From Candidatus Heimdallarchaeota archaeon (lineage in GTDB: Archaea > Asgardarchaeota > Wukongarchaeia > Wukongarchaeales > JBHIFL01), in assembly GCA_046761065.1 (NCBI GenBank), contig JBHIFL010000108.1, positions 1-11,834 of the forward strand: a stretch of DNA of 11,834 nt, in the 5' to 3' direction. The notes below the pieces were generated by a model that did not search any database, was not told where the DNA came from, and was given only the letters and a program-made list of their open reading frames with translations. The translations under genes were made by a program, and so were the position numbers. Shown in pieces: positions 2,749 to 10,209 of the stretch (position 1 is the stretch's first letter; each line of letters begins with the position of its first letter).

Positions 2749-3792
2749 TTATTTTTTCCACGGTGGTGGAGTTCCATACTTTTTACAAGCGTTGACAAAC
2801 GTTTTTATGTGTTCACTAGGCGTTTCTATCCAGAAGTCACATCCTGGAGCAACGATACTAACTCCATCTTCAATGCAGCTCTTAACTGCCTCGTTGATCC
2901 TCTCGATAGGGCCCTGGTGTAGTATTCTGGAAGGGGAGACATTCCCAATTAGGGGGTATTTAGGCTTAATTTTATCAAGTTCTTCTCGTGCGTTCTTAAT
3001 AGGAGTCTTTTCATCTACCGCTATGGCGCTTGCGCCACATTCTACCATCTTATCTACAATCATTAAAGCAGAACCACAAATATTTAAGATCGTGGGTCCT
3101 TTTACACATCTGATAAGCTCTTTTAGATACGGCTTAACGAATTCATCGAAATGTTTAGGGGAAATGTTGTCGTTAGAAGCACCCATCTCATGAAAAGTAA
3201 TGACATCGGCTCCAGCATCCTTATATAAATTCGCAATTTCAGCATACAATCCAAGGGTGGTATTGCAAAGTTGGTGAACTTTCTCTGGGGACACCCTGAG
3301 CCACTTCAAGAATGTGATACTATCAACTAAGTAATTACTTAGGCTTGTGAAAGGAGGAACCACATAGACATTAACAGGAATTTCGCTTTCGAATTCCTTT
3401 TTTAATATTTTAATTGCTTCTATGACAACTGGAATTCTTCCAGCCGTTAACAAGTCCTCAGGAAATTGAAGATCCGGTGAGTCTTTTACCAGGAATTGCC
3501 GAGCCGTGGGCCACCTGATCTTATCTTCATGAAAGTCGATTGGTGCACCTAGGACCTCTGCTTCGATGGTCATGCAAAATGGTACCGATACATTGTCGAG
3601 ACCGCATAATCTGTGAGCTGCGGAGCCAAGTTTGGCCATTTTTACGGGATCTTTATGAGCTGCAGGCCAATAAGCGTCATAAGTCTTCATAAAATCAATG
3701 GTGCTAACACTGACAGGATTTATACACGGGATTCTATTAACCCCTTCTTTTTTCCCACTTAAAATGGCCATCAATCGCTCATATGACGTCAT
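2749..3792 (-). CDS. MtaA/CmuA-family (URO-D fold) corrinoid methyltransferase, paralogue 1; HxC motif altered to NxC (347 aa)
   Basis: MTSYERL start, PAAHKDPVKMAKL, VPFCMTIEAEVLG, GRIPVVIEAI, ISPKHFDEFVKPY, ILNICG, IGNVSP, APGCD. Confidence 0.9.
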   Translation of the reverse strand: MTSYERLMAILSGKKEGVNRIPCINPVSVSTIDFMKTYDAYWPAAHKDPVKMAKLGSAAHRLCGLDNVSVPFCMTIEAEVLGAPIDFHEDKIRWPTARQFLVKDSPDLQFPEDLLTAGRIPVVIEAIKILKKEFESEIPVNVYVVPPFTSLSNYLVDSITFLKWLRVSPEKVHQLCNTTLGLYAEIANLYKDAGADVITFHEMGASNDNISPKHFDEFVKPYLKELIRCVKGPTILNICGSALMIVDKMVECGASAIAVDEKTPIKNAREELDKIKPKYPLIGNVSPSRILHQGPIERINEAVKSCIEDGVSIVAPGCDFWIETPSEHIKTFVNACKKYGTPPPWKK

Positions 3793-3804
3793 TTTTCATC
3801 ATAT

Positions 3805-3831
3805 ACTAAAATAATCGTTTTAGTTATAAAA
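3805..3831 (-). promoter_or_regulatory. Putative TATA box plus adjoining inverted repeat upstream of paralogue 1
   Basis: Minus-strand TTTTATAA at 3831-3824, about 32 bp upstream of the ATG; ACTAAAA-N6-TTTTAGT at 3805-3824. Confidence 0.55.
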
Positions 3832-4035
3832 GTTTAGAGGGTTCAAATTTTGGAGGCGGTTGGCGTCTTGAATGGCTTCCTTTTTAGGCCATAAGGTTCC
3901 TTTAACTCTTCACTTAAAAAATCAATTCATAATCCCTTCGGATTCTTTTTGCAAGTCCTCTGAGATACAATTATGCTTAAGTTGCCGAAGTTTTAAGCTG
4001 TAATGGTATCATAGTGAAATGAATTCTGATTTTAG

Positions 4036-4059
4036 GAAAGAAAATAAGGATTTCTTATT
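4036..4059 (-). terminator. Possible terminator of the mtrH-like gene
   Basis: AATAAG-N5-CTTATT hairpin (4043-4059) followed on the minus strand by a T-rich run, about 30 bp after the stop. Confidence 0.35.
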
Positions 4060-4087
4060 ATGTATTTTCTTAAGAGGGTAAGATGTC

Positions 4088-7873: not shown

Positions 7874-8931
7874 TTTTCCTTAAACTCCTTTGAAGATGCG
7901 ATATCTCGAATTCCATATAATTTTGTTGCCTCGACGAGGGCTTTGATATTCTCCAGTGGTGCTGTTGGCCAGATGTCGCATGCTGGCCAGATAGCATCTA
8001 CTCCACTTTTGATAACTTCTCTAACGATCTTTTTTATCTCACCAGGTGATCCTTTGGTAAGTACTCCAAACCCATCAATATTACCAAAGAGGAGGGTATT
8101 CCTCTTGAGTTTCTCTCTAGATTGCGTTATGTCATTCTTTTGACCAATACTTATAGCTTCTACTCCGGTTTCTTCCATCAACTCTAAAATAGGAGTGGTT
8201 TTTCCACAAATGTGCAAGACCTTTGGCGTAGTAATTTGGTTCAACAATGCTTGTAGATAAGGTAAAACAACCGTTTTGAAAAGCCGGGGACTGATGAGAT
8301 CCGTCGTCGCCCCCATCTCTCGCACCGTTATATAATCCACCCCTGCTTTTTTGAATGCCTGTGCAATTATTGCTATCACATCAACAAGGCTTTCAAGAAC
8401 AATTTTTACTTTAGTGGGGTTCTTATAGGAGAGTTTTAAAAGCTGATCGAGATCTGTTAGCACGCCAGCCAGCGTATAGGGTCCTAATACGTATGATCCG
8501 ATTGCAATCTCCTTACCCACATCTTTCTGGATCAGTTGGATTGCTTCTAAGATCAGAGGGATTCGACCACGTTCTAACAGGTCTTCAGGTGGCTCAATCG
8601 GTTGTCCAATTTCTAGTATCGGCTGTTTCACTGTCGGATATAAAATCTCCTCTGAACTCATTTCATGAAAGTTAATTTCGCAGCCAAGAGCCTCGGCCTC
8701 AAAGGTCACATCGAATGGAACAACTGCACACTCGAAGTTGGTTAGTTTATAAGTCGAAGCTGCGAGGGTTGCCATCTGTTGGGGTTCTTTTTGAGCCTCC
8801 TCGAATTTTAGTCCAAGATGGTTCATAGCATCCATAAGAACATTTCCCATCCCGCTAAAACATGGAACACGGTCTATTTCTTGTCGGTTTAGGAGTTTCA
8901 GTACCCTTTTGCGGGGAGTCATGCCGTTCAA
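7870..8931 (-). CDS. MtaA/CmuA-family corrinoid methyltransferase, paralogue 2, translationally coupled to the corrinoid protein (353 aa; alternative ATG at 8922)
   Basis: MTPRKRVL, VPFDVTFEAEALG, GRIPLILEAI, LGPYTLAG, LISPRLF, VLHICG, FGNID, WPACDIW, PLENIKALVEA. Confidence 0.92.
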   Translation of the reverse strand: MNGMTPRKRVLKLLNRQEIDRVPCFSGMGNVLMDAMNHLGLKFEEAQKEPQQMATLAASTYKLTNFECAVVPFDVTFEAEALGCEINFHEMSSEEILYPTVKQPILEIGQPIEPPEDLLERGRIPLILEAIQLIQKDVGKEIAIGSYVLGPYTLAGVLTDLDQLLKLSYKNPTKVKIVLESLVDVIAIIAQAFKKAGVDYITVREMGATTDLISPRLFKTVVLPYLQALLNQITTPKVLHICGKTTPILELMEETGVEAISIGQKNDITQSREKLKRNTLLFGNIDGFGVLTKGSPGEIKKIVREVIKSGVDAIWPACDIWPTAPLENIKALVEATKLYGIRDIASSKEFKEK

Positions 8932-8952
8932 TAATTTTCACACTCATATTCA

Positions 8953-8988
8953 AGCCAATAGGCTCAGTAATTGGATTACAATTGGCTC
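8953..8988. promoter_or_regulatory. Inverted and phased direct repeats upstream of the paralogue 2-corrinoid-RACE operon
   Basis: AGCCAAT (8953-8959)...ATTGGCT (8981-8987), inner GTAAT-TGG-ATTAC (8967-8979); AATWGG at 8957, 8969 and 8980. Confidence 0.35.
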
Positions 8989-9180
8989 TTTATTTTATTT
9001 TGTTTGTTCTTAAGAGATTCCTTCAGTGTACTCTCAGTTATCTAGACGTTCCATATACTTGAACTAAACCATCCCAATCAATTTTTTTCTTCTTTTTGTG
9101 TATAGCAGAGAACATGGACTTGATCTAAAAAAGCGCTTCCTTCAAAAAATAAAAAAAGGTAACCCAGCTGGAAGCAGTGT

Positions 9181-10209
9181 ATGAAGGAAATGACACCTCG
9201 AAGAAGGGTTCTTGCAGCTTTATTGGGCGGAAACATAGATAGACAACCCGTAACATCCTTAGCAGGGTGTGGAGGAACCGTCTGCATGGAAATGTTGGAG
9301 CAAACTGGCCTTTCTTTTCCGGTGGCGCATATAAATCCTAATAGAATGGCAGACCTAGCCATTGCTAGTTATGAGCTCACTGGACTAGAATGTATCCGAG
9401 TTCCTTTTGATTTCGCAGCGGAAGTTGAAGCATTCGGGGCAGCCATCAAATGGAGCGAAGATCCTACTATCCCGCCTTCTGTGAAAACTCCTCCATTTAA
9501 AAAATTAAAGGATGTAAAAGTTCCGGAAAATTTTCTTGGACGAGGCAGAATTTCAACTGTTTTAGAAGCTATTACACTGGCACGAAAAAGGATAGGGGAT
9601 TTTCTACCAATCTCAAGTCTGGTTTTGGGGCCTTTTACTCTAACGGGTGAACTTGTAGGAATAGAAAACCTGATGCGTTTGACCATAGATGATCCAGTGG
9701 GAGTTAAAGACGTAGTACAGCAGTTAACAGAAACTAGCATAGAATATGGTAATGCACAATATAGAGCGGGTTCGGATGTGGTGCAAATCGCCGAACCAGT
9801 TGCTTCTTCCTCAATGATAAGCCCCCGGATGTTTCGGGAGTTTGTTAAGCCGCAATTACGTAAAATAGCCGGAGGCCTTGGAGGACCAAAGGTTCTGCAT
9901 ATTTGCGGAGAAGTCGATCCCATTGTACCTGATATGGTCGAAACCGGTTTTGAAGGCATAAGTGTAGAGGAAAGTGTTGATATTAAGGCAATTACTCCAA
10001 TAAAGGCAGATGTCAAGCTTTTAGGGAATGTTTCCTCTAAATACACATTGCCCTTTGGAACTCCTGCCGATGTTAAAATGGAGGCACAAAAAGCACTAGA
10101 ATCCGGCGTGGATTTATTGGAACCCGGTTGTGGAATCCCACTTGTTGCCCCTATTGCTAACATCAAAGCCCTAGTCGAAGCAGGGAAAACATTCAAACCA
10201 AAAAAATAA
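9181..10209 (+). CDS. mtaA: MtaA/MtbA-like methylcobamide:thiol (CoM-type) methyltransferase, paralogue 3, canonical Zn site (342 aa)
   Basis: FPVAHINPNRMADLAIASYELTGLE, RVPFD, GPFTL, IAEPVASSSMISP, VLHICGEVDPIVPDMVETGFEGISVEE, GNVSS, GVDLLEPGCGI; closely recalls Methanosarcina MtaA motifs. CoM specificity is not shown. Confidence 0.88.
   Translation: MKEMTPRRRVLAALLGGNIDRQPVTSLAGCGGTVCMEMLEQTGLSFPVAHINPNRMADLAIASYELTGLECIRVPFDFAAEVEAFGAAIKWSEDPTIPPSVKTPPFKKLKDVKVPENFLGRGRISTVLEAITLARKRIGDFLPISSLVLGPFTLTGELVGIENLMRLTIDDPVGVKDVVQQLTETSIEYGNAQYRAGSDVVQIAEPVASSSMISPRMFREFVKPQLRKIAGGLGGPKVLHICGEVDPIVPDMVETGFEGISVEESVDIKAITPIKADVKLLGNVSSKYTLPFGTPADVKMEAQKALESGVDLLEPGCGIPLVAPIANIKALVEAGKTFKPKK

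Follow-up and report, generated by a model that had tools for sequence, protein, structure and literature searches.

The DNA analysed here (the window) is the entire 11,834-base contig C108 of an Asgard archaeon, 'Candidatus Heimdallarchaeota archaeon', from the same order as Ca. Wukongarchaeum. At 2749-10209 it holds six adjacent genes, which were identified from open reading frames (ORFs) and from Pfam and NCBIfam models as three genes of the MtaA/CmuA family (named U1, U2 and U3 here), one of the MtrH family, one for a RACo-type activase and one for a corrinoid protein. Together they form a real, conserved and uncharacterised variant of the corrinoid methyltransferase systems. An earlier note on this DNA had given the same parts list and bounds; both were confirmed, the ORFs exactly. 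The genome (4.42 Mb, 91.5% complete, 8.2% contamination) is incomplete, and genes missing from it are counted below as not found rather than absent. The genes of the cluster and the adjoining regulator gene are listed here.

2749-3792, minus strand: U1, MtaA/CmuA family, 347 aa (TIGR01463, uroporphyrinogen decarboxylase (URO-D) fold)
4088-5047, minus strand: MtrH-family methyl-corrinoid:pterin methyltransferase (predicted), 319 aa, non-canonical, MtoA/MtgA-like (NF002142, PF02007)
5221-7173, minus strand: RACo-type ATP-dependent reductive activase of corrinoid proteins, 650 aa, with an N-terminal 2Fe-2S domain (Pfam)
7187-7873, minus strand: corrinoid (cobamide-binding) carrier protein, 228 aa (B12-binding_2 and B12-binding domains)
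7870-8931, minus strand: U2, MtaA/CmuA family, 353 aa (TIGR01463, URO-D fold)
9181-10209, plus strand: U3, MtaA/CmuA family, 342 aa, divergently transcribed (TIGR01463, URO-D fold)
1988-2647, plus strand: probable transcription regulator with a PH0730-like N-terminal helix-turn-helix and a DUF4443 domain (Pfam)

U2 and the corrinoid protein gene overlap by 4 bases and the latter is followed by RACo after 13 bases. The remaining intervals are 173 bases from RACo to MtrH, 295 bases from MtrH to U1 and 249 bases from U2 to the divergent U3. MtaB, MttB, MtmB, MtbB, MtrA-G and Mcr had no match in the window's other ORFs of at least 80 aa, which bears out what had been said of them from the sequence alone.

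All three U proteins passed the TIGR01463 cut-off for the MtaA/CmuA family (235.4 bits), U1 with 246.4, U2 with 256.2 and U3 with 306.5 bits, each over about 335 of the 340 model positions. They scored below the cut-offs of the MtaA equivalog model NF040654 (400 bits; U1 283, U2 275, U3 330 bits) and of the MtbA model NF041608 (600 bits; U1 191, U2 195, U3 220 bits); Methanolobus controls gave 417-529 and 637-653 bits with these two models. When compared directly to Methanosarcina mazei MtaA (4AY7), U3 scored 259, U1 188 and U2 180 bits. In the alignment to 4AY7, a His-x-Cys motif and a C-terminal Cys occupy the zinc-ligand columns. U2 and U3 have the full His-x-Cys...Cys set, and U3 also has the MtaA-type Glu as fourth ligand. 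His, Cys and Cys are invariant in 121 of 121 members of the U2 family, in which the column of the MtaA fourth ligand (Glu) holds Asp or Glu in 115 members and Gly in the window's lineage. U1 has Asn-x-Cys...Cys, and Asn stands at the His-ligand column in 120 of the 121 members of its family. According to Kountz and Balskus (PMC10418091), S-methyltransferases of this superfamily are recognised by a His-Cys-Cys site, whose Cys ligands are replaced in O-demethylases.

The phylogeny of the paralogues that the earlier note had suggested was run with MtaA and MtbA anchors, taken from a complete Methanolobus genome and labelled by their NCBIfam equivalog scores, using a quick tree search. U1, U2 and U3 formed three deep clades (supports 100, 100 and 99, with 100 for the U1 clade). 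U3 was sister to the Methanolobus MtaA equivalogs (Shimodaira-Hasegawa-like approximate likelihood ratio test, SH-aLRT, 93), and U1 and U2 grouped together (support 99) in the same coenzyme M (CoM) methyltransferase radiation, weakly nearer to MtbA. The Mlp proteins of two clostridial clusters with the architecture of the mlp gene clusters (MGCs; L106, L107) fell in clades that contain none of U1-U3. Identity among U1-U3 is 33-40%, compared to 80-87% between each and its orthologues elsewhere; a recent duplication was rejected on these values and on the three separate, well-supported clades. Judged by sequence, U1-U3 are three old lineages within the radiation of the soluble methanogen CoM methyltransferases. 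Because they belong to TIGR01463, group with MtaA and MtbA and keep the Cys ligands, they are predicted to be thiol-type (zinc-type) enzymes and not of the O-demethylase or CdmB types. MtoB and MtvB, which the earlier note had included among the models for the paralogues, are unlike them, being larger (47-48 kDa) and belonging to a different clade. The U1, U2 and U3 families are large, conserved and uncharacterised.

The remaining three proteins fit the expected parts of a corrinoid system. The corrinoid protein scored 219 bits against TIGR02370 (cut-off 215.3) and carries the DxHxxG motif as DVHNIG at residue 108. Its closest solved relatives are the methylamine/MttC-type corrinoid proteins and the B12 module of MetH, and the 228-aa protein is predicted to carry a cobamide. 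The activase has the Pfam domains Fer2, RACo_linker, Raco_middle and RACo_C_ter (an ASKHA C-terminal domain), with the 2Fe-2S pattern Cys39/45/48/93, and would return oxidised Co(II) to Co(I) at the expense of ATP. It was the only full-length RACo detected in the genome by tblastn. The MtrH homologue scored 220 bits against PF02007 and passed the 'MtrH family protein' model NF002142 (346 bits, cut-off 287), and it fell below the cut-offs of canonical mtrH (TIGR01114, 204.6 against 271.4 bits) and of the MtgA equivalog (166 against 550 bits). Its matches in the PDB were 8z9u_B, the MtrH of the Mtr complex, and MtgA of D. hafniense; a literature search on entry 8Z9U, the best match, found no paper. 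The protein is 52-53% identical to the MtrH of a Hydrothermarchaeales module described below, compared to 35-39% for the two other MtrH proteins of its own genome. It is reasonable, as had been proposed earlier, to regard it as a pterin-side methyltransferase.

The cluster is conserved in relatives. A metagenomic contig (L013) has the whole six-gene cluster and both flanks in synteny at 84-91% identity, and MtrH-RACo-corrinoid protein-U2, U3 and the flanking glycosyltransferase family 4 (GT4) gene are kept in a more distant relative at ~70-80% identity (L131). Since the genes are syntenic in both, their arrangement is not due to chance; a lack of conservation, which the earlier note had said would count against its reading, was not observed. 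The parts of the cluster have different relatives further afield. U2-corrinoid protein-RACo-MtrH is collinear, in the same order and on the same strand and at 52-62% identity, at two archaeal loci, one of Hydrothermarchaeales and one of Ca. Hydrothermarchaeum profundi JdFR-18. Sulfotelmatobacter has counterparts of U2, the corrinoid protein and RACo at 52-57% identity, and an MtrH gene (39%) lies upstream of U2. The best U2 match among 300 other Asgard genomes was 39%, and a search of genome contigs for related loci with U2 alone gave 148 pattern matches, of which none was confirmed. U1 is 87% identical to a protein of a 'Ca. Heimdallarchaeota archaeon' and 60-78% identical to Bathyarchaeota and Hadarchaeum proteins. 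U1 and U3 resemble genes of clusters with the order U3-like, U1a, U1b, corrinoid protein and RACo, found in Bathyarchaeia and others; these have a corrinoid protein and a RACo that share only 40-44% identity with those of the window. Because the U2 module matches Hydrothermarchaeales and bacteria, while U1 and U3 match other clusters with a divergent corrinoid protein and RACo, the cluster is a mosaic of two older modules. U2-corrinoid protein-RACo-MtrH was probably taken up in one piece from a donor resembling Hydrothermarchaeales or bacteria, and U1 and U3 belong to the archaeal cluster type. A mosaic weakens the earlier proposal of one family loading a single shared corrinoid. G+C content is 0.46-0.47 across RACo and the corrinoid protein gene (5500-7000), compared to ~0.40-0.44 elsewhere in the window, which fits a foreign origin of the U2 module and is not proof of it.

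The neighbours of the orthologues overall fit a role in methyl transfer to or from a thiol cofactor. U3-like homologues (56-61% identity) adjoin either MttB and a corrinoid protein or a split, pyrrolysine-type MtmB and a corrinoid protein, as would be the position, by analogy, of a thiol-methylating second methyltransferase (MT2). At one such locus (L058:956-2368), MtmB was called as two adjoining pieces (204 and 241 aa), the pattern that an in-frame amber (pyrrolysine) codon would give; the corrinoid protein gene is its neighbour, and the U3-like gene is ~5.6 kb away. The U2 module adjoins a cysteate synthase gene (471-539 bits, cut-off 325) and a fused sulfopyruvate decarboxylase gene (above the equivalog cut-off) in the acidobacterium Sulfotelmatobacter (L016:6929-17032) and in Hydrothermarchaeales (L018:2788-15969), hosts that are not known methane makers. 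By analogy, this implies that the module may have a purpose-made sulfonate thiol partner in both. Further neighbours at these two loci encode an SsuA-like binding protein, an AhpD/CMD-like protein, a DUF6951 protein and an HdrD/DsrK-like protein, with a DsrM-like membrane subunit in Sulfotelmatobacter. CoM-precursor genes and an HdrD/DsrMK-like pair were found neither in the window nor in L013 or L131 (the HdrD/DsrMK-like genes were not sought genome-wide). We found no paper on a U2-type module joined to CoM-precursor genes, and a literature search on the joint occurrence of cysteate synthase, ComDE and MtaA in non-methanogens gave only a methanogen genome paper.

Two Bathyarchaeota loci hold U1-type genes beside mcr or cdh genes. 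On a chromosome that has Mch and no MtrA match (MFD04492.bin.c.5, OY970340.1, L069:461-19041), the genes between hdr and mcr include U1a/U1b, MtrH, a corrinoid protein and RACo, a context that fits a soluble link between tetrahydromethanopterin (H4MPT) and a thiol. This cluster has three MtaA-like genes and stands ~3 kb upstream of mcrB, mcrG and mcrA; mcrB and mcrA were each called in two pieces, which may reflect frameshifts or long-read errors. In a second assembly (GCA_050115935.1, L070:1019-10151), a series of genes for a U3-like protein, U1a, U1b, a corrinoid protein and RACo is followed immediately downstream by cdhD and a cdhE-like gene, which encode the corrinoid iron-sulfur protein of acetyl-CoA synthase. 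In two other Asgard lineages, U1-like genes that stand alone have unrelated neighbours, which give no functional hint.

We also examined the rest of the genome by tblastn and with family models. It holds at least ten MttB-family genes and six corrinoid proteins, five of them outside the window and four next to MttB, together with three MtrH genes; the only MtaA-like genes are the three in the window. The MttB and corrinoid protein genes are spread over contigs C55, C54, C29, C40, C8, C37, C39, C10 and C2 (for example, L009:4098-9302). The organism appears to be specialised in the use of quaternary amines or other methylated amines. C55 brings together two MttB genes, a corrinoid protein gene, the second MtrH gene, a core-MetE-like gene, a major facilitator superfamily (MFS) transporter gene and an amino-acid permease gene. 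The sole MtrA-like domain of the genome (135 bits) is part of a 517-aa protein with a weak TusA-like N-terminal domain (C140, L130:736-2289, minus strand). McrA was not found in the genome, nor were cysteate synthase, ComDE or ComA above their cut-offs, in agreement with the earlier suggestion of a possibly non-methanogenic archaeon. The earlier note had named Mcr and separate substrate-side methyltransferases (MT1s) as genes whose presence would speak against its reading; other MT1s are present in the form of the MttB genes, alongside the five additional corrinoid proteins, and Mcr was not found. MtaB, MtmB and FTHFS also remained below cut-off genome-wide. C77 carries CdhC together with Mch, and C12 a MetF-like gene; since these three are present, an H4MPT-type Wood-Ljungdahl pathway, which the note had proposed looking for, is likely. 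SelD was not found above cut-off in the genome (best score 85 bits against 125), and no selenocysteine tRNA was found among just 19 tRNAs detected in all by aragorn. Many of these 19 tRNA genes, called with introns allowed, contain introns; the set is poorly assembled or too unusual for the program.

Our favoured reading, to which we give a probability of about 0.4, is that the cluster is a soluble corrinoid-dependent hub linking the methyl-H4MPT pool to thiol-type (sulfur) partners. Methyl groups would flow, on balance, from CH3-H4MPT or from MttB-loaded corrinoid proteins via CH3-Co(III) to thiols, with each U enzyme serving a different thiol or thioether partner. The hub would thus be a soluble, energy-uncoupled Mtr, or a MetH split into separate proteins. 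Since no genes for CoM synthesis were found, the acceptors are probably not CoM; candidates are sulfide, methanethiol, homocysteine and mercaptopropionate. With sulfide and methanethiol as acceptors, the products would be methanethiol and dimethyl sulfide, which could act as a methyl sink. A precedent for such acceptors is ClMlp2, which removes the methyl group of methylcobalamin with selenide as acceptor and, at a lower rate, with sulfide (PMC10418091). The direction is suggested by energetics. For methyl transfer from CH3-H4MPT to HS-CoM the standard free energy change is -30 kJ/mol; to run this reaction in reverse, methanogens need a sodium gradient (PMC10998594). Transfer from a thioether to H4MPT would therefore cost about +30 kJ/mol, which a soluble system could not pay, and this suggests the pterin-to-thiol direction unless the donor is activated, as in a halide or a sulfonium compound. 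On these thermodynamic grounds we ranked the thiol-methylating hub first and transfer from a donor to H4MPT second. The earlier note had proposed the latter direction, with the U proteins as MT1s. The direction is weakened by the same uphill step, since it would work only for activated donors, and the MT1 role by the MT2-like position of U3-type enzymes elsewhere. A broader form of the hub reading is that U1, with its Asn-Cys-Cys site and 60-78% identity across Asgard archaea, Bathyarchaeia and Hadarchaeia, would form, together with U2, U3, MtrH and one corrinoid protein, a soluble, non-ion-pumping link between methyl-H4MPT and thiols. Non-methanogens would use a thiol other than CoM, making methanethiol and dimethyl sulfide from sulfide, or methionine, and in Bathyarchaeia that have Mcr and lack Mtr such a cluster would replace Mtr. 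We regard this generalisation as doubtful.

Several points weigh against a thiol-methylating hub. Its direction and acceptors are inferred from sequence. The MtrH gene on C55 sits in a cluster type that is read as passing methyl groups from donor to pterin (PMC11291895), and by analogy the window's MtrH might likewise release methyl groups to H4MPT. Catabolic systems (Mto, mec, O-demethylases) typically look like this cluster in having several substrate-side enzymes on one corrinoid protein, and dumping methyl groups onto thiols conserves no obvious energy. U2 has lost the Asp/Glu at the fourth-ligand column, the Asn-Cys-Cys site of U1 is without a characterised counterpart, and the branches that join U1 and U2 to MtbA are weakly supported (SH-aLRT 83-90). 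Finally, no CoM synthesis genes were found in the genome, so the argument from the context of the U2 orthologues may not carry over.

One alternative is a sulfur-donor system, in which U1-U3 are MT1s that move methyl groups from dimethyl sulfide, methanethiol, methylmercaptopropionate or a sulfonium compound (dimethylsulfoniopropionate, S-methylmethionine) to the shared corrinoid protein, and MtrH passes them to H4MPT, to be oxidised or built into acetyl-CoA. An MT1 role is possible for MtaA-family enzymes, as the substrate range summarised in PMC8630106 and the example of MtpA indicate, and the Methanococcus voltae sdm genes are needed for dimethylselenide use (as cited in PMC10418091). MttB, a corrinoid protein and MtrH are used together elsewhere in the genome, which also has CdhC and Mch; several paralogues on one corrinoid protein with a divergent regulator look catabolic; and in Bathyarchaeota three MtaA-like genes with a corrinoid protein and RACo lie directly upstream of cdhD/cdhE. 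However, the thioether-to-H4MPT step of about +30 kJ/mol falls to a soluble system without an ion gradient, and the contexts of the U3 and U2 orthologues look like those of MT2s. By our own estimate, sulfide-rich habitats make the methanethiol step still worse, and to our knowledge every characterised thioether system passes its methyl group to CoM and not to a pterin. We consider this alternative unlikely, although it is a serious competitor. The energetic objection does not apply to a halomethane system like Cmu or mec, in which one or more U proteins would put the methyl or chloromethyl group of CH3Cl, CH3Br, CH3I or CH2Cl2 on the corrinoid protein and MtrH would pass it to the pterin, since halides are energetically good donors. 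Compared by inventory only, the mec cassette of Dehalobacterium, Ca. Dichloromethanomonas and Ca. Formimonas, and CmuAB, are near-identical to the cluster: MecE (MtaA/CmuA), MecF (MtrH), MecB (corrinoid protein), MecH (RACo) and the methyltransferases MecC and MecI (10.1101/2021.08.30.458270). CdmB-like genes also occur in other Asgard archaea, but CdmB is zinc-independent and belongs to a different clade (PMC13222342). In contrast to the mec cassette, the window has no counterpart of the MecA/MecD-type two-component regulator, the MecG-type DUF protein or the MecJ-type transporter, and the host is an archaeon that uses H4MPT. No mec homologue above 35% identity was reported in public genomes, bar three Dehalobacter exceptions (10.1101/2021.08.30.458270), whereas U1-U3 have relatives at 48-64% in lineages that have long been public (MSBL1, Hadesarchaea), which indirectly makes orthology to MecE, MecC or MecI unlikely. 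The strong conservation of U1 between phyla (60-78%) points instead to a common cellular substrate, and a halomethane role is improbable.

Two further systems share the architecture of the cluster. Methyl-selenium salvage, as proposed for most type 1 mlp clusters, would demethylate dimethylselenide or methylselenol to recover selenium. These clusters, which include M. voltae sdm, likewise combine several MtaA-like proteins of old lineages with one corrinoid protein and one bacterial-type reductive activator of corrinoid enzymes (RACE) in non-methylotrophs; their His-Cys-Cys sites, from which one Mlp group deviates in some of its members, are taken to indicate S/Se-methyl chemistry, and selenide is a substrate of ClMlp2 (PMC10418091). 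At the least, a type 1 MGC carries orthologues of Mlp2 and Mlp3, clades that were defined there. The same paper stresses that type 1 MGCs lack a pterin methyltransferase, whereas the window has one of the MtrH type. In addition, U1-U3 group with MtaA and MtbA and apart from the Mlps of the two clostridial clusters, the host is an Asgard archaeon, and neither SelD nor a selenocysteine tRNA was found, within the limits of the scores and the short tRNA set given above. Selenium salvage is thus very improbable. Even less probable is an Mto/Mtv-type O-demethylase for methoxylated aromatic compounds. The Mto system of Methermicoccus shengliensis and Archaeoglobus fulgidus shares the four-component logic, with an MtrH-type MT2 and a 2Fe-2S RACE (PMC8630106), and the same parts, with transfer to H4MPT or tetrahydrofolate, recur in Mtv/Odm/Vdm and CdmBCA. 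In contrast to U1-U3 (342-353 aa, TIGR01463), MtoB1 and MtoB2 are MtvB-related proteins of 47-48 kDa outside the MtaA/CmuA family (PMC8630106). MtoB, MtvB and CdmB form another UroD clade of larger proteins, a placement that for MtoB follows its published description. CdmB is closest to MtoB and was shown to work without zinc, and a Moorella O-demethylase is reported to be zinc-free (PMC13222342). U1-U3 keep the Cys ligands typical of S-methyltransferases (PMC10418091), and no MFS or aromatic-compound transporter lies nearby in the window.

The systems closest in chemistry to a thiol-methylating hub differ from the window in their parts. MtaA, MtbA, MtsA/MtpA and the fused Mts/CmtA proteins of Methanosarcina acetivorans share fold, family and zinc-ligand columns with U1-U3, and U3 is sister to MtaA. 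Unlike these methanogen CoM methyltransferases, the U proteins miss the MtaA and MtbA cut-offs, stand with a separate corrinoid protein and an MtrH gene, and belong to a genome in which neither Mcr nor CoM synthesis was found. CmtA/MtsF has been described as a soluble methyl-tetrahydrosarcinapterin:CoM methyltransferase, and MtsD/F/H have been linked to the formation of dimethyl sulfide and methanethiol. The Mtr complex and MetH would resemble the cluster in the proposed chemistry, in which the methyl group passes from the pterin to Co(I) and then to a zinc-activated thiol. In this comparison the MtrH homologue would stand for the pterin module and RACo for the reactivation module, and the corrinoid protein is similar to the B12 module of MetH. 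In contrast to Mtr, the window has no MtrA-G and no sodium pumping, and its carrier is MtaC/MttC-like rather than MtrA; the thiol module has the URO-D fold instead of MtrE or the homocysteine domain of MetH. The CoM-linked U2 module shares the collinear U2-corrinoid protein-RACo-MtrH order, but its CoM-precursor, SsuA-like and HdrD/DsrMK-like neighbours are not in the window. Genes for MtrH and methyltransferases without mcr have been described in Hydrothermarchaeota, with the fate of the methyl group left open (Carr et al. 2019, PMC6775978).

Genomes are almost the sole basis of what is known about energy metabolism in Asgard archaea, the closest known relatives of eukaryotes. The present genome resembles that of a specialised anaerobic user of methyl groups, with all its methanogen-style thiol methyltransferases and its only full activase in one cluster. 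If the cluster does transfer methyl groups between H4MPT and sulfur, Asgard archaea would be tied to the cycling of methanethiol and dimethyl sulfide in sediments, a process for which we know of no identified enzymes in non-methanogens. It would also give a handle on why 'methanogen' enzymes such as MtaA-like proteins and MtrH are common in organisms that make no methane, a puzzle raised in PMC6775978. As the U1-U3 families are large and conserved, the function of one cluster would inform many genomes.

The cluster is flanked by the PH0730-like/DUF4443 regulator gene, a trio of genes that includes a DUF4430 protein, and the GT4 glycosyltransferase gene. An Rfam scan of the window returned no family, and a repeat search in the three intergenic regions gave nothing convincing. 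The regulator gene keeps its position and orientation in L013, an 86% relative, and by its position the regulator may have a role in the cluster. The DUF4430 trio (60-1908, minus strand) is likewise conserved beside the cluster in L013. Its members are a 248-aa protein that has a signal-like segment at the N terminus and an anchor at the C terminus, a 216-aa protein for which several membrane segments are predicted, and the DUF4430 protein itself, which has an N-terminal anchor and whose best PDB match, the C-terminal part of transcobalamin-1, is insignificant (E = 0.29). The trio could be a cobamide-binding or uptake set.

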